Assembly (NCBI GenBank): GCA_039024635.1 | Contig: JBCCQA010000017.1 | Location: 23,624-87,623, forward strand | Direction: 5' to 3' | Length of the DNA stretch: 64,000 nucleotides | Source: Myxococcota bacterium | Lineage (GTDB): Bacteria > Myxococcota > Kuafuiibacteriia > Kuafuiibacteriales > Kuafuiibacteriaceae | Shown here: positions 1 through 9,134 of the stretch, in pieces | Position numbering within the stretch: position 1 is the stretch's first letter | Layout: the number at the start of each line of letters is the position of its first letter | Translations under genes and position numbers: made by a program | The notes under the pieces: model-generated | What the model saw: the letters and a program-made list of their open reading frames with translations, nothing else | What the model was told of the DNA's origin: nothing | Databases searched by the model: none

Positions 1-1578
1 TGACCAAAGTATTTGGGAGTCACTGGTCGGAAGCCTACATGCAGAGCTTTCTCTTCCCTCGACGGACGCGACCGACCAGCGATCACTAGCTTCCACGGAG
101 GCTTCAGATGAATCAATGATGGGCTGAGCTCGCTCGAGGAGGTCCGCGAGAGCGGCTCGTGCGGTCGTCGTCACCTGACTCCAGCTCTCAAAGCGGTCGC
201 TCTGAGACGCCTCCATTAGCCTTCGTATGAATTGCTTCATCGCGGAGGGAAGGACGGGCGTCGTGTGGCTACGCTGGGATCTCTCGAGTCCTGGACTTGA
301 GATCACCAAAGTCCAAGCGTCTTCGGGTGCCTTACCTGTCAGCGCGTAGAGCAGGGTTGCGCCGAGTGAGTACATGTCCGAGCGCTCATTCGATCTCTGA
401 GGGGCCGACGTTGTCTCGGGTGCCTGATAGCCAGCGTCGTTGGCATCAGCGGACGTGGAGATAGAGCCCAACGCGAAATCCGTCACCTGGCTGCGCCCGT
501 CTTTCCGAACCATCACGGTGTGAGGACACAGAGCTCGATGGATGACACCCTTCTCACAGGCGGCAGCTAGGCCGTTTGCCACATCCAGGGCGAGTTCGAG
601 AGCACGACGCACCGGCAGCGGACCACTCGCTTCGACCAGCTCGGCAAGCGATAGGATAGCGACGTGCTCGAAAACGAGCATGGAAGGCTTGCTGTCGGCA
701 TCCAGGACACGAACGATGTTGGGATGATCAAGCGACGCTAGTCGTCTCATCTCCTCCAAGCACCGAGACGGGGTCTCATCAATTCCCTTGAAGATCTTCA
801 CCGCTACCGTCATCGCCAGCGACTCGTGGAAAGAGCGAAAGGTCACAGAGGCGGCGGTCTCGCGCATTAGCTCCTGGAGCGTAAAGCGACCTATCCGCTC
901 ACCTGGGCCAAAACGACGTAAGGTGGACTCTTCCCTTGAACGATTCGCTTCTAGGGAAAAATCAGCCTGCATCCTCTCGCCAGAAAGCCTATTGCCAGCA
1001 GCGGTCTTTGAGGAAGAAACCACCGCGTAGTTCGTATCCGCGTCCGATATCATAGTCGACCAACGCTGGGCCCGGGACTTCGCCTTCTTGATAGGTCGAG
1101 GCTTCAGTTCGCCCTTTCGCTCTGCCTCTTCCAACTGGCGGAGTCTTGTTCGTGTAATGAGTCTTCCTTTCTCGACAAGGATCCCTCCTGTCACTGGATG
1201 TAGAATATCGCGAGTGGTGCGCTTCCCGACCAGTGGCTCAATATCCAGGACCTTGTCGATGAACTCCCCTTCCTTTAAGCCGACAACGACGTCCGGTCCA
1301 AAAACGACGACTTGACACGCGAGTCGAGAATCTGACGAAACATGCGCCAAAGTGGCTAGGGTTAGCTCCTCTCGCTTGGTCTTCGGAGAGACTGAGGTTG
1401 CTGGACCTGACAAGCGAACGTGGCAGGTAGCACACAGACCGTTTCCTCCGCAGGCCGCCAGCATTCTGCTTCCGTGGGACTGAAGGGCGTCGAGCAATCG
1501 CGACTCGGGCCCAACGTCAAGGAAGGTTGTTCGACCAGAGCCTCTTCGCAGTTCTACCGTATGTTTGACAGACGACAT
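1..1578 (-). CDS. 2Fe-2S ferredoxin-like module fused to a degenerate Hanks-type kinase (pseudokinase); 3' end outside the window
   Basis: Absent from the ORF track because it has no stop in the window. My reverse-strand translation from ATG 1578-1576 stays open to position 1 (about 526 codons). N-terminus MSSVKHTVELRRGSGRTTFLDV..AACGGNGLCATCHV..LACQ gives C-x5-C-x2-C-x35-C (adrenodoxin-type ligand spacing). The kinase-like part keeps VAVKI, YQAPE and SDMYSLG. It reads HRALCPHT instead of HRDxKxxN, DFA instead of DFG, and has no G-x-G-x-x-G loop. Confidence 0.8.
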   Translation of the reverse strand, partial: MSSVKHTVELRRGSGRTTFLDVGPESRLLDALQSHGSRMLAACGGNGLCATCHVRLSGPATSVSPKTKREELTLATLAHVSSDSRLACQVVVFGPDVVVGLKEGEFIDKVLDIEPLVGKRTTRDILHPVTGGILVEKGRLITRTRLRQLEEAERKGELKPRPIKKAKSRAQRWSTMISDADTNYAVVSSSKTAAGNRLSGERMQADFSLEANRSREESTLRRFGPGERIGRFTLQELMRETAASVTFRSFHESLAMTVAVKIFKGIDETPSRCLEEMRRLASLDHPNIVRVLDADSKPSMLVFEHVAILSLAELVEASGPLPVRRALELALDVANGLAAACEKGVIHRALCPHTVMVRKDGRSQVTDFALGSISTSADANDAGYQAPETTSAPQRSNERSDMYSLGATLLYALTGKAPEDAWTLVISSPGLERSQRSHTTPVLPSAMKQFIRRLMEASQSDRFESWSQVTTTARAALADLLERAQPIIDSSEASVEASDRWSVASVEGRESSACRLPTSDSQILWS

Positions 1579-1593
1579 GGATCCGAACTCTCG

Positions 1594-2577
1594 CTAGCCA
1601 AGGTCCGCCAGCTCATCCAAACGGAGCATTTCTTCCCTCGCCCAACGAGAGCCATGTACTTTCTTCAGTGCAAGCAACTCGTCCCGGGCTTCGGCGCAGT
1701 CTCGGAACCTGTCCCTTGGGTTCTTTGCGAGACCTCGAAGTATGAACGTCGAGAGATCAGCCAGACAAGGACGACCCGGATGAGCGGCTTCGAGTGAGGA
1801 GCAGACTCCGTTCATATGGCCAACGAGAAGTTCACTACCTTGACCTCCAAAGGGCATGACGCCGGTGGCGGCCTCGTAGAGGAGGACGCAAACTGCGTAG
1901 AGATCCGATTGAGGCGTGGCTCCGCTGCCCGCGATCTGTTCCGGCGGCATATACGCTGGCGTACCAAGAACCCAACCTGTCCGAGTGGCTCGTTCTGAGT
2001 GGACAACGCTGTCCCGACCGCGAACTCCCAGAGCCAGGCCGAAGTCGAACAGGACGACCTTGAGCCGGGGCACCATACGAATGGAGATATTGGCCGGCTT
2101 GATGTCGCGATGAACCCACCCGCTCTGATGAACCGCGGTGCACGCGGACAGGAGTTGAAGACCGATCGTGACGAGATCCTGGATGGCAAGACTACCCATC
2201 CTGAGAAGAACATCCTCCAGTGTGAGCTCCGCTAGTCGCTCAAGCACAAGAACCTTTCGACCGTCTACCAGGTCAAGTTCGTCCAGGAGCTGCACGACGT
2301 GAGGGTGCTCTATGGAGCTCAGCGCCTCTACTTCTCTTTCGAACCTGAAGGTACCCGAGATTGAGCTCCCTTGTTCCACGGGTAGCTGGATCTTAAGAAC
2401 AACGGGTCTTCCGGAGACCCGATCAAAGGCCTCGATCGCGTCTGAAGAACCGCCACAACCGATAACCCTCTTGACGTCAAACCGGCGAGAAAGCTGTCTT
2501 GGTAGCCCTGCTCCGGAGGAGTCCCGCCTTCTAGGAGCTCGCGGCCAGAGCGACTCGGGGACCTGCTGATTTACCAT
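1594..2577 (-). CDS. Ser/Thr protein kinase (Hanks-type), catalytic motifs intact
   Basis: ORF 1594..2655. Motifs IGCGGSSDAIEAF, VVLKI, HRDIKPANI, DFGLA, GTPAYMPPE. ATG at 2577 (MVNQQ..) preferred over GTG at 2655, which would overlap the upstream gene by 125 nt. Confidence 0.85.
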   Translation of the reverse strand: MVNQQVPESLWPRAPRRRDSSGAGLPRQLSRRFDVKRVIGCGGSSDAIEAFDRVSGRPVVLKIQLPVEQGSSISGTFRFEREVEALSSIEHPHVVQLLDELDLVDGRKVLVLERLAELTLEDVLLRMGSLAIQDLVTIGLQLLSACTAVHQSGWVHRDIKPANISIRMVPRLKVVLFDFGLALGVRGRDSVVHSERATRTGWVLGTPAYMPPEQIAGSGATPQSDLYAVCVLLYEAATGVMPFGGQGSELLVGHMNGVCSSLEAAHPGRPCLADLSTFILRGLAKNPRDRFRDCAEARDELLALKKVHGSRWAREEMLRLDELADLG

Positions 2578-3166
2578 GGGCTTCAAGCTCCTCAAAAATC
2601 GAACGGCTGTGAACAAACGACTTGTTTGCCTCACGAATAAGCTTGTCTTCGACACTCTCCAGCTCCGGCCGATTTAACCAGTCCGAAAGCCTACCGCGGA
2701 TCTTCTTCGAGCTTCCTATCTCCCCGAAGTCGAAGAAGCTCCAGGTCTTCTTTTCAGACCAGCCGGCCTGCGCTCGCCGTAGAATGACCGCGCCCCCGGT
2801 CACATCTCCGAAGTAGCGGACGTAGGCGTGGCCAAGAACGAAGAGAGGGCTGCGCTCTGCGGCCGATTCGATAGCTGTCGCGTACTCCAGGGAGGCCTCA
2901 CCAATCTTCAATCGCCTGCCTTTGAGGTCTTGCCGAAGTCGGGATGCTCGATGGAGACGCCAATCGCTGAACGGGCCGAATAAGCCGCTTGATAGAACGC
3001 TCTCCATGGCATCGTATACCGGCAGAAGCTGAGCCATGTAGTGGCTAAACTCGTCCAGTGAGACTTCACTTGCGAGAAGCCGCCGGGCAAATCGAGTGCC
3101 CTCGATGCTTCGGTGAGCGTCATCGGTTGAGTCTCGAAGACTAGCTGTCAGGAATGGCTGTTTCAT
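2531..3166 (-). CDS. Haem oxygenase (HO-1/HmuO/BphO family)
   Basis: 211 aa. LRDSTDDAHRSIE matches the proximal-His helix signature (L-x-x-A/S-T-x-x-x-H-x-x-x-E). GHAYVRYFGDVTGG matches the distal-helix signature AHAYTRYLGDLSGG. Confidence 0.8.
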   Translation of the reverse strand: MKQPFLTASLRDSTDDAHRSIEGTRFARRLLASEVSLDEFSHYMAQLLPVYDAMESVLSSGLFGPFSDWRLHRASRLRQDLKGRRLKIGEASLEYATAIESAAERSPLFVLGHAYVRYFGDVTGGAVILRRAQAGWSEKKTWSFFDFGEIGSSKKIRGRLSDWLNRPELESVEDKLIREANKSFVHSRSIFEELEAHGKSAGPRVALAASS

Positions 3167-3821
3167 TCAGTTGATCCTCCTTAGTAATGTTCGAGTCTAG
3201 CTTTGAGAAGACTCCGTCGAGATCAGCAACCAGGTCGGAAGTCCCTGCCGCGAATAGGTCGGATACAGGAGCTACATTCGAGGTCTGGAGACCGGCTAAG
3301 GAGCGCTGCAGATGCCGCACGGCCGCTACGGCTGCTCGGCGATTTCGCACCTCCGCCCAGAGAGCCTCTTTCAGGCGTCGACTGGCCTCTCGAAGGTCGT
3401 TGCTGCCCGACTCGGTCGAGAGCGCTTCGAGGGCTCGCTTCTGACTCAGCATCTCCGCTCGAAGCTCGATGATGGTCTGTTCCTTGATCTGCAGAGCGGC
3501 CATCAACTTCTCAATGCTCGGGCTCTCGGTATCTCTTGGTTCCCCTCTAGCATCGGACTCAACGGGCTTGGGTGGCGCGAGCTGCAGAGCGCCGCTGTGG
3601 GCCAAGATATCGCCGACTGAGTCTTTGAGGTAGCCTCGTGCTACCGCCTTGAGACGATTGCACGTTGCAGAGTCAAAGATGCCGCTTTCAGTAATGGAGC
3701 GGTCGGGATCGTCTACGTACTTCTGGCAGGCTAGCTCGATCGTCTTAGAGAGCTCAGGATGACCTCCTTCGTTGTCAGAGAGGTGGGCTTTGAGCATCCG
3801 ATAGACAACATCAGATTTCAT
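3141..3821 (-). CDS. Hypothetical protein, N-terminal globular part plus long coiled-coil-like region
   Basis: 226-aa ORF. ATG at 3821 lies 3 nt after the stop of the upstream gene. Heptad-like stretch IEKLMAALQIKEQTIIELRAEMLSQKRALEAL. No family recognised. Confidence 0.6.
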   Translation of the reverse strand: MKSDVVYRMLKAHLSDNEGGHPELSKTIELACQKYVDDPDRSITESGIFDSATCNRLKAVARGYLKDSVGDILAHSGALQLAPPKPVESDARGEPRDTESPSIEKLMAALQIKEQTIIELRAEMLSQKRALEALSTESGSNDLREASRRLKEALWAEVRNRRAAVAAVRHLQRSLAGLQTSNVAPVSDLFAAGTSDLVADLDGVFSKLDSNITKEDQLNETAIPDS

Positions 3822-3824
3822 TTC

Positions 3825-4742
3825 TCAGACTCCGAATGCGAATAGGATGCCCGCGATGGCTAGCGCAGCACTTGCTAGCCCGAGAACCACCGCATGCCGA
3901 TTCCTACGCGGCTCAATTGGTACTTCTGTCGCCTCCACAGTCAGAGACTGAGGCGAAACCGGGGAGTCACTGATGACATGATTCACTCGCATCTGCTCTC
4001 GTGTCGCCGTCTCCCACTGAACATCGACGCGGAGACCCTTCATAGAAGGTCGATGCACTGGTTGAGGGACTACCGGAATAGGAGGAGAAACGGTCAGCGA
4101 AGGAGGCGGCACCACCGGAACGCCGTACTTCGAAGCCTGGGTTTCTTGAAATGAGCAAAGTCCTTGCCATCTCTGATAGACCTCGACGCAAGCAGTCTGG
4201 AGGGTCTTTTGTGACGTGCTTTCCGACAAAGCGCCGATCGGTTCACATGCAAGAAGCGACTCAATGAAGAGTCGCATCGCGTCGAAGGTCGGGTCCTCAT
4301 GATTCGCGTCTACGAGCATGAAGCCAAGCCTCACTAGTTCCGGGTGGTGTTCGTAGAGCTCAGCCAGGCGGGGTGCCATTTTGATGAAAGACTCCAGGTG
4401 CAGCATGGAGATCAGTACTAGAATTGAAGCTTGAGGTGATGATGCAATAGCCCTGAGCTTTCCAAGATCATCACAGGGGACGATCCGCACCTCACGATCG
4501 TCTTGTGCCATGAACTCGAGGCTTCCGCTCTCGTAGGACAGGTCCGGTTCCGATTGGTACTGACTCCGCAGGGGATCATCCTTGATGGAGCTTGCAGCCA
4601 TTAGATGCGTGAGGCCGCTTTGCGAGCACAAATCAAGCAGCCGAACCCGCTTGCCGGTATCTCGAGCTACGCGAGAAAGGGCAAAGGCTACAGTTCCGAC
4701 TGCAGCTGGCGCCCCTACATGGGCTATGACTATCGTGCTCAT
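3825..4742 (-). CDS. ParA/MinD-fold protein with degenerate Walker A, Pro-rich linker and C-terminal TM anchor
   Basis: MSTIVIAHVGAPAAVGTVAFALSRVARDTGKRVRLLDL resembles the deviant Walker A region (KGGxGKT) but lacks both lysines. C-terminus HAVVLGLASAALAIAGILFAFGV is hydrophobic. ATG 4742 overlaps the upstream stop (ATGA). Confidence 0.5.
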   Translation of the reverse strand: MSTIVIAHVGAPAAVGTVAFALSRVARDTGKRVRLLDLCSQSGLTHLMAASSIKDDPLRSQYQSEPDLSYESGSLEFMAQDDREVRIVPCDDLGKLRAIASSPQASILVLISMLHLESFIKMAPRLAELYEHHPELVRLGFMLVDANHEDPTFDAMRLFIESLLACEPIGALSESTSQKTLQTACVEVYQRWQGLCSFQETQASKYGVPVVPPPSLTVSPPIPVVPQPVHRPSMKGLRVDVQWETATREQMRVNHVISDSPVSPQSLTVEATEVPIEPRRNRHAVVLGLASAALAIAGILFAFGV

Positions 4743-4939
4743 GGTCCATCCCACTTGAACGTGTCGAATACAGCAAGCTTCTCCACCTCCGCCGAAGGTG
4801 AGGATGCCTGGCTCGCCACCGATTCGGTGTCCGGACCCTCGTGGCCAAGCTCGCGAACAAGCTCTGCCGGATCAGGGCGCTTGGCATCCATGAGATCGTG
4901 CATCCAGTTGACACACTCTATGATCGAACCGGAGCTCAT
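4739..4939 (-). CDS. Small hypothetical protein (66 aa)
   Basis: ORF whose ATG (4939) overlaps the kinase stop and whose TGA overlaps the next ATG, both as ATGA. Supported only by this coupling. No family recognised. Confidence 0.4.
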   Translation of the reverse strand: MSSGSIIECVNWMHDLMDAKRPDPAELVRELGHEGPDTESVASQASSPSAEVEKLAVFDTFKWDGP

Positions 4940-6345
4940 AGCTCTTGGTCTCCAATAGGAACGGCCGGGAAGCTGAGTATCTCGAGCTCACCGTTTGCGT
5001 CGGCTCTGAGCTCGATTCCATCTGGAGGGATGGGCAGGACCCTTGGGAAGCCATCCGCACCGGCGAGCCATCGAACGACAGAAACGACTTCGCTGAACTC
5101 TCCCCCATCGAGAACTAGTTGGCCGAATTCGACAGCGAACAAAGGGAGTCGAGTCTCCCGCACGGCCGTCTCGACGCGGCCGCCTTCATGGAGCCTCATG
5201 GCTACGTGCCTGGTTCCAAGTGGTTCCCATAAAAGAAGCTCTCGAGCAGAGAGCCAGCTCGAGCGCAGCGGAAGGTCGAGGAGGCTCGTAAACTCGTGTA
5301 TTGGCGAGGAGCCTTCAAAGTTCTGTACAGAGCAGCTTTGAACCCAGCCAATCTCTGCTCCGTGGGTCGCGACAATAGCGCTTCGATCGGGAGAAACAGC
5401 GAGGTAGCGCAGGTTCCTGTCGTCGGCTCGTAGCGTTTCTCTGTGGCATGAGCCAAGACGCCGAACCCGTCGACGCTCGCTTATGACGACCTCATCTCTG
5501 CATACATCCAACAAACGAAGTGGTTGAGCGGAGAGCCTCCAGCTAGCTTGGTCTGCGCCCAGCCATTGGACGCCGTCTCGATGCATGAACCAAGCCCAAT
5601 CCGCGCCGAACGAGAAGTCCTCAGCATCGAGCATCGAAGCCACCCAGTCTAGATCTGGGAGACGACGGCTCGGGGCTCCACTGAGAAGGCAAGCGAGCAA
5701 ACCGTCGAGTCCCGAAGACCAACGATGGTGTCGTGCGAACCTGCTACGCTCGGAGGGCAGGGGGAAGGAGCCGTTGCGCGCTTCTAATCCTACCACACCC
5801 AGCGAGTAGGCGTCGGACTGACGGAGGCCGCAGTGCCACAGCCGTTCTGGTGCCAGGTACTCGAGTGAGCCCTCGAACCGACGATGCACGGATGTGTACT
5901 CGCTTGAAGCGGCTGATCCGAGATCGGCGAGCCGCCAGTCGAGCCCCACATCTCTTCGAAAAACAAGGATGTTCTCGGGCTTCACATCTCGATGAAGCCA
6001 ACCCCATTGGTGAATGCGACCAAGCGCCAATGCAATGCCCCGGACAAGTGAATCAAGGTCCGAGTCCGCGAGCCGCCTTTGGAGAAGGACGCGCCTCAAT
6101 GATCCGTCCGACGCGATTGGCATTGCGAAGTACCAGCATTGCGAAGACTGGTCGAAGCCCACGTCGAGGACCCGTGGGGTTCCGTCTCCATCCAAGGCAA
6201 GCAGAGCATTGACCTCGCTCCACCACTTTGGTCCTGTGCACATCTTGACGGCGACGGGGTCTTCGTTCCAACCCCTCCTGGCAGCTACGACTGTTCCTTG
6301 CGCGCCGCTGCCCAGGCTACGCTCGAAGTGTGCGTATCGGTCCAT
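4936..6345 (-). CDS. Ser/Thr protein kinase with about 200-aa C-terminal domain of unknown function
   Basis: ORF 4936..6480. LGSGAQGTVVAA, VAVKM, HRDVKPENILV, DLGSA (DFG variant), LEYLAPE. ATG at 6345 (MDRYAHFERSLGSG) sits 2 nt after the upstream stop and is preferred. Confidence 0.85.
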   Translation of the reverse strand: MDRYAHFERSLGSGAQGTVVAARRGWNEDPVAVKMCTGPKWWSEVNALLALDGDGTPRVLDVGFDQSSQCWYFAMPIASDGSLRRVLLQRRLADSDLDSLVRGIALALGRIHQWGWLHRDVKPENILVFRRDVGLDWRLADLGSAASSEYTSVHRRFEGSLEYLAPERLWHCGLRQSDAYSLGVVGLEARNGSFPLPSERSRFARHHRWSSGLDGLLACLLSGAPSRRLPDLDWVASMLDAEDFSFGADWAWFMHRDGVQWLGADQASWRLSAQPLRLLDVCRDEVVISERRRVRRLGSCHRETLRADDRNLRYLAVSPDRSAIVATHGAEIGWVQSCSVQNFEGSSPIHEFTSLLDLPLRSSWLSARELLLWEPLGTRHVAMRLHEGGRVETAVRETRLPLFAVEFGQLVLDGGEFSEVVSVVRWLAGADGFPRVLPIPPDGIELRADANGELEILSFPAVPIGDQEL

Positions 6346-6347
6346 TT

Positions 6348-6965
6348 CTAGTTGAGGAGCTCCGCGAGGATCTCGGCGTGAGAGCGGCTTGCTTCCCTCG
6401 AACGGCGAACGCCCTCTAGCACTTGCTCCGAGCCGCAGATGAACTTGCCCTTCCCGCATCCAGGAGCGGTCTGCAAACACCCAAGCCCTCCGACGGCAAA
6501 CTGCCCGAGAAAGCCCTCTAGCATGCCTTCGGCGAGAGGATCGAGGTCACTCATCTCGGAAGCATAGGCTTCGCCAATTCCGTCTGAGAGTTGGACTTCG
6601 AAAAAGCCGGAGGATGCGTGTTCCCATCGGAACACGAGTTCTCCTAGTCCGCTTCCTTTCCAAAGGTCCCGTATGAGTGCGTCCAGCTCTGCCATGGTTC
6701 GCTCTCTGATTCCAACCGAGTCGGCAGTGCCGAGCTCGTCCTCGAACCGTCGAGCAAGACGACTGCCGTATCGTACGCCGCACTGTCTGAGCACAGATGC
6801 TGAGGCATCGCCGAGTTCAAAGCGCAGGGCAGAGACGAATCCGATTAGCCATGAAGAATCAACTGCGATTAGACGCGTATTTCCAGCGCTTCTGAGAACA
6901 CCGCGAGCGGCTTCGAATCGAAGATAGGATGATCGCGAGAAGTGATTGAGGTCCACACGCGTCAT
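6348..6965 (-). CDS. V4R-like (4-vinyl reductase/BchJ-type) small-molecule-binding domain protein, divergent
   Basis: RLIAVDSSWLIGFVSALRFELGDASASVLRQCGVRYGSRLARRF mirrors the N-terminal V4R pattern seen in the paralogue at 7687-8349. C-terminal GCLQTAPGCGKGKFICGS is Cys-rich but departs from E-x-x-C-x3-G-x3-C-x-F. ATG 6965 overlaps the upstream stop (ATGA). Confidence 0.55.
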   Translation of the reverse strand: MTRVDLNHFSRSSYLRFEAARGVLRSAGNTRLIAVDSSWLIGFVSALRFELGDASASVLRQCGVRYGSRLARRFEDELGTADSVGIRERTMAELDALIRDLWKGSGLGELVFRWEHASSGFFEVQLSDGIGEAYASEMSDLDPLAEGMLEGFLGQFAVGGLGCLQTAPGCGKGKFICGSEQVLEGVRRSREASRSHAEILAELLN

Positions 6966-7447
6966 GCTGCGCGCTCCCGCTCCCCCAAGACCTCGACACA
7001 ATCCTTGAGGTATGGTTCCAGGAGGCCAAAGGCTTCTGCCGAGAGCTGCTTTTCACAGGTCGTGAGCAGACTCGAGTAGGAATCCTTCACGAATTCCTGC
7101 GACAGACCGATTCCTTCGAGAATCGTCTTTAGCCAAAGGAGAAGGTTGTCCCTAAGGAAGAGCCGATCGTCCTTCACCATGGCGAGCACGCAGTATCGAA
7201 GAACAAGGCTGAGGTCTCTCTGCGCCTTCCTCTCCCCTTCCTTGTACCTCTGGGAAATGTCTGAGTATCTGGAGAGGACACTTTCCAGTACCTCGTCGAC
7301 GATCAAACCTTCACGTTGTTCGACTTCCGCGCTGGCTTTGAGCCGACCGGGAAGGCCGTCGCTGTACTGCGTCAACGACGCTGTCTCCTTAGAGGTCAGG
7401 TAGCGTCCCTCGGCTGACTGCAGCATGTTCTCAATTTGTCCGTTCAT
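6962..7447 (-). CDS. Phycobiliprotein-fold globin (allophycocyanin/phycocyanin-like), attachment Cys absent
   Basis: 161 aa, the length of an APC subunit. QSAEGRYLTSKETASLTQY..GRLKASAEVEQREGLIVDEVLESV aligns with ADAEARYLSPGELDRIKSF..RRLRIAQTLTENRERIVKQAGDQL. ERKAQRDLSLVLRYCVLAMVKDD aligns with [23 protein letters not shown]. The R-D pair is kept and the Cys position is Ala. Confidence 0.75.
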   Translation of the reverse strand: MNGQIENMLQSAEGRYLTSKETASLTQYSDGLPGRLKASAEVEQREGLIVDEVLESVLSRYSDISQRYKEGERKAQRDLSLVLRYCVLAMVKDDRLFLRDNLLLWLKTILEGIGLSQEFVKDSYSSLLTTCEKQLSAEAFGLLEPYLKDCVEVLGERERAA

Positions 7448-7453
7448 CTCTTC

Positions 7454-7687
7454 TCACTCCCAGTTGAAATCGCCAAAGATGGCTATGGTTTCGATGGATT
7501 CGCCACACGACTTGGATGGCCTTACACTTTGATTCTGACGCCTGAGTCCTACGGCGAAGAACTCCTCGACTCGATATGAACGCCAGCTCTCCGCTTCGAA
7601 CGACTCGGCCGAAGCGCTCGCTTGAGCCAGGTCACCGAACCACTGGCGCACTTCGGTTTGAGGCCAAGGCATCGCTAGCGCAGACAC
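7454..7687 (-). CDS. Small hypothetical protein (up to 77 aa)
   Basis: GTG at 7687 overlaps the stop of the upstream V4R gene. An internal ATG near 7670 is an alternative start. No family recognised. Confidence 0.4.
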   Translation of the reverse strand: MSALAMPWPQTEVRQWFGDLAQASASAESFEAESWRSYRVEEFFAVGLRRQNQSVRPSKSCGESIETIAIFGDFNWE

Positions 7688-8349
7688 TACAAACGCTCCA
7701 TGATCTCATTCGCTGAAGCACCTTCTTGAACCCAGAACTGAGCTGCGTTGATCCGCTTTGATGAGCCAACTAGGAACTTGCAGAATCCCTCGCCCATTGA
7801 ATAGCACTGGATCTCAATGGCGCTGAGCTCTCTCTTGGCGAGTCGACCGAACACGGCGGCGAACATTCCGGCATAGTAGTGACAGACGACTTCACCGACG
7901 TTTCCGATGCTCTTCGCCACGGCGGAGTCATAGAGGTCGACGAAGATAAGTCCTTCGGACCGGTGGCTCAGGTCGTACTTCCACACGCCCCACCCCGAGG
8001 CCTGCAGCGGCCACCACCATGACTCGAGGAGGAACCCGAGGGCTGCGCCATCTGGCTGATATCCGAACTGGGTTTCGAATCGGCCCATGAAATCATCAAT
8101 GTCTTTTTCGCCCCATTTAAACCCGCACTGATACATGACTTCGCCCGCGGCATCTCCAAGCTCGGTTTCGAGCGCCGCTTGAAATGAAACAACGAAGTCT
8201 TCGGTGGCTAGCATCAGTCGGCTGCCGAAAGTATTCAGCAACTTCGTTCCCGAAGCGCTTGGCGCAAAGAACCGGCGTGCGCTGAAACGGTTGTGCAGGA
8301 CGAGTCTTCCTTGCGCAGAGCTCTCTGAGACGTGCATTTCTGAAACCAT
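7687..8349 (-). CDS. V4R domain protein
   Basis: ORF 7687..8436 (TTG). ATG at 8349 (MVSEMHV..) preferred. FVVSFQAALETELGDAAGEVMYQCGFKWGEKD, and the canonical C-terminal AIEIQCYSMGEGFCKFLVGS (E-x-x-C-x3-G-x3-C-x-F-x-V). Confidence 0.7.
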   Translation of the reverse strand: MVSEMHVSESSAQGRLVLHNRFSARRFFAPSASGTKLLNTFGSRLMLATEDFVVSFQAALETELGDAAGEVMYQCGFKWGEKDIDDFMGRFETQFGYQPDGAALGFLLESWWWPLQASGWGVWKYDLSHRSEGLIFVDLYDSAVAKSIGNVGEVVCHYYAGMFAAVFGRLAKRELSAIEIQCYSMGEGFCKFLVGSSKRINAAQFWVQEGASANEIMERL

Positions 8350-8463
8350 CGTGCTGCGACTGTAGGCAGGCTTGGGCGGATTGCAAGGTGTGGGTGTCAC
8401 TTTTTTGACCGAAATCGACCAGCCTCTTGTCGTCAAGTGTAGGCGTAGAGGGCAGGGGAGCTT

Positions 8464-8495
8464 CCTTCAGCTTAATGGATGCTACCTTCAGTTTA
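8464..8495. promoter_or_regulatory. Direct repeat CCTTCAG(C/T)TTA x2, 21-nt register, in the divergent promoter region
   Basis: ccttcagctta at 8464-8474 and ccttcagttta at 8485-8495, between the V4R operon start and the ferredoxin gene start. A possible transcription-factor site. No known consensus matched. Confidence 0.2.
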
Positions 8496-8561
8496 GATTG
8501 AGAAGCGGTGCGGTCGAGTCTGCTTGCAATCATCTTAGTTGTCCGTCCTTAGTGTTGGAGG

Positions 8562-9041
8562 ATGAAAGACGTCACCATTGAGGGTCTTGGTCAGCCCGTT
8601 TGTGTGAAGACAAACAAGAGGATCATCGATGCCCTCCTTCAAGGCGGTAAGCCGCCTCTGATGGCCTGCGGCGGGAAGGGGCTTTGCGCGACCTGCCACG
8701 TGTTCGTAGATGCCGAAGCTGATGCGCTCTCGCCGCAAACGCCTCGAGAGCGAGCATCTTTGGCTGCCCTTCGTGGCCGGACGAATGCCAGCCGTCTTGC
8801 TTGCCAGGCAAAGGTCCGTGGACCTGTTCGTGTTCGACGCCCGGACGGTCGCTTTATTGAAGCAGCCATGGACGTAGAGTCCTTCGTGGGAAAACGAGCG
8901 ACCGACGATATTCTCCATCCCGTCGATGGGCGCCTTCTGATTGAGCGCGGGAAGCTGATCACGCGCTCGCGAATTGTTCAGCTCAAGACAGTGGATGTGG
9001 ACGTCGGTGAACTGAAGAAGCGCTGCCTCACTGTCGTCTAG
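8562..9041 (+). CDS. 2Fe-2S ferredoxin (adrenodoxin-type Cys spacing) with about 60-aa C-terminal extension
   Basis: MACGGKGLCATCHV..LACQ gives C-x5-C-x2-C-x35-C. The extension FVGKRATDDILHPVDGRLLIERGKLITRSRIVQL is paralogous to LVGKRTTRDILHPVTGGILVEKGRLITRTRLRQL in the gene at 1-1578. Confidence 0.8.
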   Translation: MKDVTIEGLGQPVCVKTNKRIIDALLQGGKPPLMACGGKGLCATCHVFVDAEADALSPQTPRERASLAALRGRTNASRLACQAKVRGPVRVRRPDGRFIEAAMDVESFVGKRATDDILHPVDGRLLIERGKLITRSRIVQLKTVDVDVGELKKRCLTVV

Positions 9042-9134
9042 TAGTGGCCCTTATGACGCTCGCTAAGTCTGGATGTGGCGCCGTGTTGTTCCGGTGATTC
9101 GGATCGGGGCGATGTCCGAAGGTCACCGCGCCTT

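Follow-up and report, generated by a model that had tools for sequence, protein, structure and literature searches.

A Fed5-type ferredoxin with a predicted BBM2 tail, free-standing and fused to a pseudokinase, in a bilin gene cluster of a Myxococcota bacterium

The stretch of DNA considered here, a window of 64,000 nucleotides from a Myxococcota bacterium, encodes two ferredoxin modules with the same C-terminal extension, one of them free-standing and the other located at the N-terminus of a kinase-like protein, and this raises the question of what the extension is and what an iron-sulfur redox module does on a phospho-signalling scaffold. A sequence-only reading of the window had described the two modules as paralogous 2Fe-2S-type ferredoxins with identical ligand spacing, their tail as foreign to ordinary ferredoxins, the fused kinase as a pseudokinase and the surroundings as a haem-oxygenase/kinase locus, and all these descriptions have been borne out in the computational analysis presented here, that of the ferredoxin type at the level of sequence. 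With a probability of roughly 0.6, the ferredoxin and its tail, which is predicted to be a BBM2 domain, form a module for redox function or electron transfer that is in physical contact with the Ser/Thr kinases of the cluster, the tether to the pseudokinase being part of this interpretation.

The fused gene occupies positions 1-1578 of the minus strand (L010 10622-12202) and codes for a complete protein of 526 amino acids, with an ATG start codon at 1578 and a stop codon that is found 1-3 nt beyond the window start in the flanking genome sequence. As assembled, it is a single open frame without any stop across the 526 codons, and it starts 15 nt past the end of an upstream active kinase gene. 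The protein begins with a [2Fe-2S] domain of the adrenodoxin/ISC (iron-sulfur cluster) type (residues 1-103, positions 1270-1578; Pfam Fer2 31.9 bits, TIGR02007 fdx_isc E 7.6e-10) with cysteine ligands C43, C49, C52 and C88, followed by a BBM2-like tail (residues 104-156, positions 1111-1269) that was delimited by a tail hidden Markov model (HMM; E 1.4e-19), alignment, a profile search against PDB and Foldseek. This tail, whose motif is present in both copies, extends to about position 1111, slightly past the limit of 1150 assigned in the sequence-only reading. A linker of about 75 amino acids (residues 157-233, positions 880-1110), which contains W173 (codon TGG) and, 6 nt further on, the ATG of M176, leads to a degenerate Hanks-type kinase domain (residues 234-473, positions 160-879) of a lineage named K2 below, detected by the Pkinase model at 80.6 bits over residues 244-464.

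The free-standing gene (8562-9041, plus strand) codes for a Fed5-type ferredoxin of 159 amino acids, in which the ferredoxin domain (8562-8846; ligands C36, C42, C45 and C81) is followed by the tail (8847-9005) and a C-terminal helix (9006-9038). When the 159-residue stretches of the free copy and of the fused N-terminus were compared by BLASTP, 70 of 139 positions were identical (50%, E 3e-42). The spacing C-x5-C-x2-C-x35-C is exact in both copies and the ligands are invariant across 33 aligned sequences. Both copies exceed the gathering threshold of 21 bits of the Pfam family Fer2 (PF00111), the free one with 36.7 bits; the top NCBIfam match is the 2Fe-2S ferredoxin of the ISC system, and the sequence matches in PDB are adrenodoxin homologues, putidaredoxin, terpredoxin and E. 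coli Fdx. An AlphaFold2 (AF2) model of the 159-residue protein, built with 33 homologues (predicted local distance difference test, pLDDT, 87.8; predicted template-modelling score, pTM, 0.79), matched 1i7h, 3ah7 and 9i2a in Foldseek over about 100 residues, with E-values of 2e-7 to 5e-6 and template-modelling (TM) scores of 0.77-0.86. Each module is thus predicted to combine about 100 residues of [2Fe-2S] ferredoxin domain, of the vertebrate/ISC type and with predicted cluster binding, and about 55 additional residues. A third paralogue, with 55% identity, is encoded elsewhere in the genome (G000:C40:13689-14162). The fused ferredoxin retains the four cysteine ligands and all 30 invariant ferredoxin and tail positions of the family, and it is altered at the near-invariant surface positions K39N, A83V, K84V, P94K and A113T.

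The additional residues lie outside the available domain models, since isolated tails gave no Pfam match even at an E-value of 10 and just one weak match in NCBIfam, to a fused RNA polymerase family, and no model in either collection covers the tail. Foldseek searches with the full 159-residue model returned ferredoxins only, and the tail was therefore modelled alone. In the aligned tails a glycine, a proline, a second glycine and a leucine are invariant, an arginine is near-invariant, and an I-T-R motif is held in common. A profile of 53 columns built from 36 tails was searched against all PDB sequences, and 10 of its 12 matches were subunits beta or beta' of RNA polymerase. The best match corresponded to residues 841-868 of B. 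subtilis beta' (6wvj_D, E 2e-6); others were beta' of C. thermocellum at E 8e-5 and, at E 0.0025, a beta subunit in its beta-i4 region (7xya_C). Two crystallised constructs of beta-i4, 3lti and 3e7h, were matched as well. When the genome containing the window was scanned with a tail HMM, the sole match besides the three paralogues was RpoC (E 9e-4). The tail-only AF2 model (53 residues) gave RNA polymerase beta or beta' in all 50 of the top 50 Foldseek matches in PDB, with individually weak E-values (0.06-0.5) because the domain is tiny; superposition on 3e7h and 3lti gave a TM score of 0.64 and a root mean square deviation of 1.8 A over 41 residues with 36% identity, for a model with a pLDDT of only 72.5.

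BBM2 is a small beta-hairpin-plus-helix module of bacterial RNA polymerase, where it occurs in the beta subunit (insert beta-i4) and in beta', and it is said to have been predicted by Iyer and coworkers in 2004. According to the structural description of beta-i4 by Opalka et al. (2010, PMC2939025), the insert is made up of a tandem pair of BBM2 (beta-beta' module 2) motifs. The profile result, which is significant, and the uniformity of the Foldseek matches together indicate that the ferredoxin tail is a single BBM2 domain, sharing with the polymerase module the motif G-R-x-hydrophobic-x3-hydrophobic-x-P-x-x-G-x-hydrophobic-hydrophobic, then a turn and a helix. It differs from the polymerase module in being one copy appended to a ferredoxin instead of an insert in RNA polymerase, and in its family-specific invariant residues H119, P120, I133, T134 and R135. 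In RNA polymerase, beta-i4 lies at the surface and serves for contacts with other proteins, an example being 7egs, described by its title in the Foldseek list as a complex of the lobe domain with the C-terminal domain of UvrD. No paper tying BBM2 to ferredoxins was found in a literature search that did not take in Iyer et al. 2004. The tail profile also detected (E 1e-9 to 1e-3) many proteins of 110-270 amino acids with two BBM2-like stretches and no Pfam match (P0167-P0217); at least one of them, P0172, is an RpoB fragment, and others of this group may be stand-alone tandem-BBM2 proteins.

The sequence-only reading had taken the duplicated tail as a sign of a docking partner shared by the two copies, an argument that loses its specificity because the tail is found family-wide in hundreds of sequences. 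A homologue search returned 249 proteins, mostly of 159-167 amino acids and mostly from Myxococcota metagenome-assembled genomes (MAGs), that align end to end including the tail, and the sole annotations among them were 'ferredoxin' or '2Fe-2S-binding protein'. The extension is therefore common, and it is not annotated. Full-length identities, tail included, range from 36 to 60% across six phyla, and the tail-bearing sequences belong to Myxococcota, Planctomycetota, Acidobacteriota, Sumerlaeota, Pseudomonadota and Cyanobacteriota. In the scan of the genome collection, tail-bearing ferredoxins were detected in Myxococcota, Gemmataceae, Blastocatellia, Sumerlaeota, Competibacteraceae and many cyanobacteria (Pseudanabaena, Waterburya and Leptolyngbyaceae among them). 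The cyanobacterial cluster ferredoxins have the same tail and form a clade inside the family, in a tree that was calculated without Slr0148 itself. The tail is accordingly an ancestral part of the Fed5 family and not a special trait of the two copies in the window.

The cyanobacterial counterpart of this iron-sulfur protein is Fed5, or Fdx5 (Slr0148), encoded in the slr0144-slr0152 operon of Synechocystis. It has been called adrenodoxin-like, and its gene lies in a conserved cluster with 4VR genes, apc-like genes (allophycocyanin-like proteins) and, in many cyanobacteria, a gene for a Ser/Thr kinase (pknG) (PMC4284462). The gene set of the window is that of the pre-PcyA/BBAG clusters, which have been described together with their Fe-S protein in a paper that does not discuss the kinases (Rockwell, Martin & Lagarias 2023, PMC10151467). 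The likeness extends to the 2Fe-2S type, which is adrenodoxin-like in both cases, and to the neighbours, namely V4R-A, the BBAG globin, V4R-B, haem oxygenase, ferredoxin-dependent bilin reductase (FDBR) and a Ser/Thr kinase; a difference is that the genome of the window encodes the protein three times, once in fusion with a pseudokinase. The order ferredoxin, V4R-A, BBAG, V4R-B and kinase was conserved in nearly all of 63 related loci from six phyla. In each of the 28 non-cyanobacterial loci that reach far enough, V4R-B is followed by a kinase gene, and a kinase gene is also present within the cluster in several cyanobacterial loci. These comparisons identify both modules as members of the Fed5/Slr0148-type family, which is a fixed part of pre-PcyA/BBAG clusters. 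Among 40 related genomes, the ferredoxin module is present in only 2. In the literature searched for Fed5 or the Fe-S protein, it is named just 'Fe-S protein' or 'adrenodoxin-like ferredoxin', and no C-terminal domain or kinase fusion is described.

A phylogenetic analysis of the cluster kinases was carried out with IQ-TREE, using 24 random kinases of the same genome as background. One clade, K1 (support 97/99), unites the cyanobacterial cluster kinases (SpkG position) with the kinases that follow V4R-B in Myxococcota, Acidobacteriota and Gemmataceae; in the window, the K1 gene (4936-6480, minus strand) lies directly after V4R-B. The other clade, K2 (99/99), includes every fused kinase of Gemmataceae as well as the second kinase of myxobacterial clusters. 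Within K2, a Myxococcota subclade (100/100) takes in the pseudokinase of the window, and the fused kinases of Gemmataceae belong to a Planctomycetota subclade (100/94). K1 and K2 have been inherited together with the BBAG cluster across phyla. In L040, a non-fused Gemmataceae locus, the K2 gene ends 2 nt ahead of the ferredoxin gene.

The closest paralogue of the pseudokinase is the active K2 of a second cluster of the same genome, located on contig C40 (41% identity). With respect to active K2 kinases, the G-loop LGEGSTA is replaced by MRETAAS in the protein of the window, the catalytic loop HRDVKPSN by HRALCPHT, with loss of the Asp, Lys and Asn of the HRD motif, and DFG by DFA, with loss of the Gly. 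VAVK, the alphaC Glu, APE and the C-lobe motifs are kept, and the Pkinase score is 80.6 bits versus 147-186 bits in relatives; the branch in the kinase tree is long (1.29 versus 0.54). The domain is consequently classified by its motifs as a pseudokinase, for which phosphotransfer is very unlikely. Such pseudokinases are usually considered to play a scaffold or allosteric role. Canonical K2 proteins (L009 13846-15516, L099 490-2400 and L100 538-2430) carry at their N-terminus a conserved domain of some 80 amino acids (FLRPHL...GYV) with no Pfam match and, after it, a Pro/Ser-rich linker of 150-250 amino acids. In the protein of the window, the ferredoxin-BBM2 module and its linker are found in place of this N-terminal part.

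The joining of a ferredoxin to a Hanks-type kinase, which the sequence-only reading had considered unusual, is indeed a singleton in the window's own lineage, among 40 related genomes, and yet it recurs with active kinases in Gemmataceae. A word-index search that used the first 240 residues of the fused protein as query returned only the protein of the window, and a unique fusion was considered on this basis; this idea was rejected when an exhaustive HMM search revealed Gemmataceae fusions that the word-index search had missed. In this search the tail profile was run against 1.84 billion representative proteins and 99 proteins were obtained. Besides that of the window, 13 of them, of 484-614 amino acids, combine Fer2, the tail at residues 97-149 and Pkinase (P0137-P0144, P0150-P0152, P0155 and P0161), and P0148, P0156 and P0153 are variants with PP2C (637 aa), a WD40 propeller (758-798 aa) and a receiver-like region (334 aa). 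Named sources of fusions are Gemmataceae and Zavarzinella, and one locus (L051) belongs to a Gemmata MAG. Examples of the Fer2-BBM2-Pkinase proteins are MGF1583010.1, MEZ6140604.1 and CAN5350989.1, annotated only as 'protein kinase', 'hypothetical' or 'ferredoxin/Bud32'.

In the tree of ferredoxin modules, the Gemmataceae fusions form one clade (99/95), inside which the PP2C and WD40 fusions also fall, and the fused copy of the window is placed among Myxococcota beside its two paralogues, on a branch of 1.13 versus a median of 0.24. In the receiver-like fusion, Fer2 is C-terminal to the receiver-like region, which was recognized by eye, Pfam having matched Fer2 only, and this protein groups with a cyanobacterial Pseudanabaena ferredoxin. 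In the ferredoxin tree as in the kinase tree, the fused sequences cluster within their own phylum, so the fusion events are independent, and the one in the window arose within Myxococcota. As both the Myxococcota and the Gemmataceae fusions contain K2, the ferredoxin-BBM2 module has been joined to the same kinase lineage at least twice, in separate events. The Gemmataceae proteins share with that of the window the order ferredoxin, BBM2, disordered linker and K2-lineage Hanks kinase, although they do not descend from the same fusion event and their kinases, unlike the dead kinase of the window, mostly keep all catalytic motifs: GxGxxG, VA[VI]K, HRDxKPxN and D[FL]G are kept in all but one of them. 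P0139, a Gemmataceae protein of 614 amino acids, is a second, separately degenerated pseudokinase with VAVT, HREVRPAN and NLG.

The other genes of the cluster are encoded on the minus strand of the window in the order V4R-A, a 77-aa open reading frame (ORF), globin, V4R-B, kinase, a ParA-like ORF, a coiled-coil ORF, haem oxygenase, a 353-aa kinase and the fused gene. V4R-A (7687-8436; PF02830, 57.3 bits) is divergent from the free ferredoxin gene; BBAG, the phycobiliprotein-like globin (6962-7447; PF00502, 55.4 bits), is followed by the V4R-B-type protein (6348-7001; phmmer to the V4R-B of C40, 5e-32). Haem oxygenase (2531-3166; Pfam PF01126, 95.4 bits) precedes the active Ser/Thr kinase of 353 amino acids (1594-2655), which has HRDIKPAN and DFG. 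Only the 3' end of the FDBR gene (positions 1-89, plus strand; PF05996, 76.8 bits) is within the window, the gene being almost wholly outside it (G000:C17:22834-23712, L010 9835-10713); it runs towards the fused gene, with an overlap of about 92 nt between the two 3' ends. With FDBR found at the window start and haem oxygenase present, the cluster of the window is complete. A 226-aa ORF at 3141-3821 was considered as a divergent FDBR and was rejected, as it has no Pfam match and a coiled-coil look and the FDBR was found off the window start. The 77-aa ORF between V4R-A and BBAG (7454-7687) could be assigned to no family, and its position and size are kept in other clusters (a 77-aa gene in L014 and L015, and a weak match in C40). 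Upstream of FDBR (L010 8218-9818, G000:C17:21217-22817), an ORF for a PilJ-type sensor is followed by an overlapping ORF with HATPase_c and receiver domains, and the two may represent one hybrid histidine kinase split by a frameshift. A second and more canonical copy of the whole cluster is located at G000:C40:12667-23088 (L009), in the order FDBR (minus strand), ferredoxin-BBM2, V4R-A, small ORF, BBAG, V4R-B, K1, three ORFs, K2 and haem oxygenase. The genome has thus been shown to carry two complete paralogous BBAG clusters, that of the window being the divergent one.

In the proposed mechanism, the ferredoxin would be the redox or electron-transfer element of the cluster, supplying electrons to the neighbouring haem oxygenase and FDBR or sensing electrons for them, both enzymes being ferredoxin-dependent (PMC10151467). 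It would act in physical contact with the Hanks-type kinases of the cluster, with the BBM2 tail as protein-protein docking surface, and in the fused protein it would be permanently tethered to the pseudokinase scaffold, which most likely would pair with the adjacent active kinase. The redox state of the Fe-S center, or the demand for electrons, may thereby be coupled to phospho-signalling. A ferredoxin-kinase complex is suggested by the independent fusions with K2, by the PP2C, WD40 and receiver-like fusions, and by the Fd5 phosphorylation in Synechocystis, which is reported as dependent on SpkG (Slr0152) (Angeleri et al. 2018, as cited in PMC11863333 and PMC10651672); SpkG's activity is still to be directly shown in vitro (PMC11863333). 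In this precedent, as in the proposal for the window, a Hanks kinase encoded in the cluster acts on the cluster ferredoxin or is required for its modification, with the difference that in Synechocystis the two are separate genes. A more far-reaching version, put forward tentatively, is that the Fed5-type ferredoxin-BBM2 is more than an electron donor, namely an obligate redox-sensing partner or substrate of the ancient kinase lineages K1 and K2 in a BBAG/V4R signalling system that predates phycobilisomes, BBM2 being a kinase-docking or phospho-acceptor element with Thr134 (in 'ITR') as candidate site and the recurrent fusions being a Rosetta-stone record of the partnership.

Physical coupling to the kinases has to be weighed against two other explanations, one of which attributes the fusion itself to a one-base assembly or sequencing error, or to a recent stop loss without functional consequence, that joined two adjacent genes. 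These would be a ferredoxin of about 172 amino acids ending at a TGA, now the TGG of W173, and a kinase-like gene of about 351 amino acids starting at M176. The linker codons 172-176 (positions 1050-1065, minus strand) read 'cgt tgg tcg act atg', so that the ATG lies 6 nt beyond a codon separated from TGA by a single transition, and a product of 172 residues would fit the family length of 159-172 amino acids; moreover, the genome is a draft MAG of 69 contigs, and the fusion has been seen in no relative or independent contig. Repeat-driven misassembly was considered and rejected, since no repeat of at least 18 nt able to drive a chimeric join is present in positions 1-9100. The frame as assembled is free of stops over its whole length, no obvious Shine-Dalgarno sequence precedes M176, and proteins of the same architecture form a genuine family in Gemmataceae and have comparable disordered linkers. 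An error or accident without consequence is considered quite improbable. The arrangement of TGG, 6 nt and ATG may nevertheless be the footprint of a stop loss at an operon junction, either as the origin of the fusion or as the site of a one-base error. Were there two genes, a ferredoxin paralogue and a pseudokinase would be adjacent and translationally coupled, by which the functional inference would be little changed and the identity of the parts not at all.

The other explanation, which is considered unlikely, restricts the ferredoxin to being a dedicated electron donor to haem oxygenase and the pre-PcyA bilin reductase; the tail would dock it to these enzymes, the kinases would be unrelated regulators, and the fused copy would be a decaying duplicate without function. 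Both ferredoxin-dependent enzymes do flank the ferredoxin genes here, and decay would agree with the dead kinase, with the surface substitutions of the fused copy, and with the branch lengths, which in the two trees are greatest for this copy and for its kinase. Against it, cyanobacterial clusters retain the ferredoxin-BBM2 though clustered haem oxygenase and FDBR have been lost (PMC10151467 and loci analyzed here), the recurrent fusions with Ser/Thr kinases, PP2C, WD40 and receiver-like regions are hard to square with a purely metabolic carrier, a Ser/Thr kinase follows V4R-B in every non-cyanobacterial locus that reaches far enough, and the fused ORF is intact, with ligands, invariant positions, VAVK, alphaC-Glu and APE maintained. 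Coupling to the kinases, preferred here, has in turn several points that weigh against it. The cyanobacterial cluster kinases are assigned to K1, and the SpkG-Fd5 precedent, for which the evidence is indirect, therefore concerns a lineage other than the fused K2, SpkG and Slr0148 having been outside the comparison. For the protein of the window and for its bacterial homologues beyond Synechocystis, the Fe-S cluster, the redox potential and the partners are predictions. The weak Foldseek E-values of the tail leave the BBM2 assignment to the uniformity of the matches and the sequence profile. The fusion is absent from all 40 related genomes; the DNA pattern of the junction, with the third base of codon 173 left free, had 0 matches in independent contigs, and residues 94-293 found no relatives among JGI metagenome proteins. 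The long branches of both halves are also compatible with decay.

The ferredoxin family and the bilin cluster were already known, and no prior view is overturned by these results. What appears to be undescribed in the literature searched is the BBM2 tail, the existence of K1 and K2 as cluster-specific kinase lineages across phyla, and the recurrent fusions with kinases, phosphatase and receiver-like regions, and the protein of the window is a new, degenerate variant of the ferredoxin-BBM2-kinase architecture. With the BBM2 assignment, a domain annotation becomes available for a conserved region left uncovered by the Pfam and NCBIfam libraries. The cluster of BBAG, V4R and Fe-S proteins is the proposed phycobiliprotein ancestor, and in Synechocystis it corresponds to the enigmatic slr0144-slr0152 'photosystem assembly' operon. 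If the ferredoxin were an obligate partner of the kinases, the link between SpkG and Fd5 in Synechocystis would also be accounted for. Tractable proteins have been identified in which the partnership of ferredoxin and kinase can be tested, and a testable hypothesis emerges for the family, namely that a ferredoxin-kinase complex may couple the redox status, or the status of bilin synthesis, to Ser/Thr phosphorylation.

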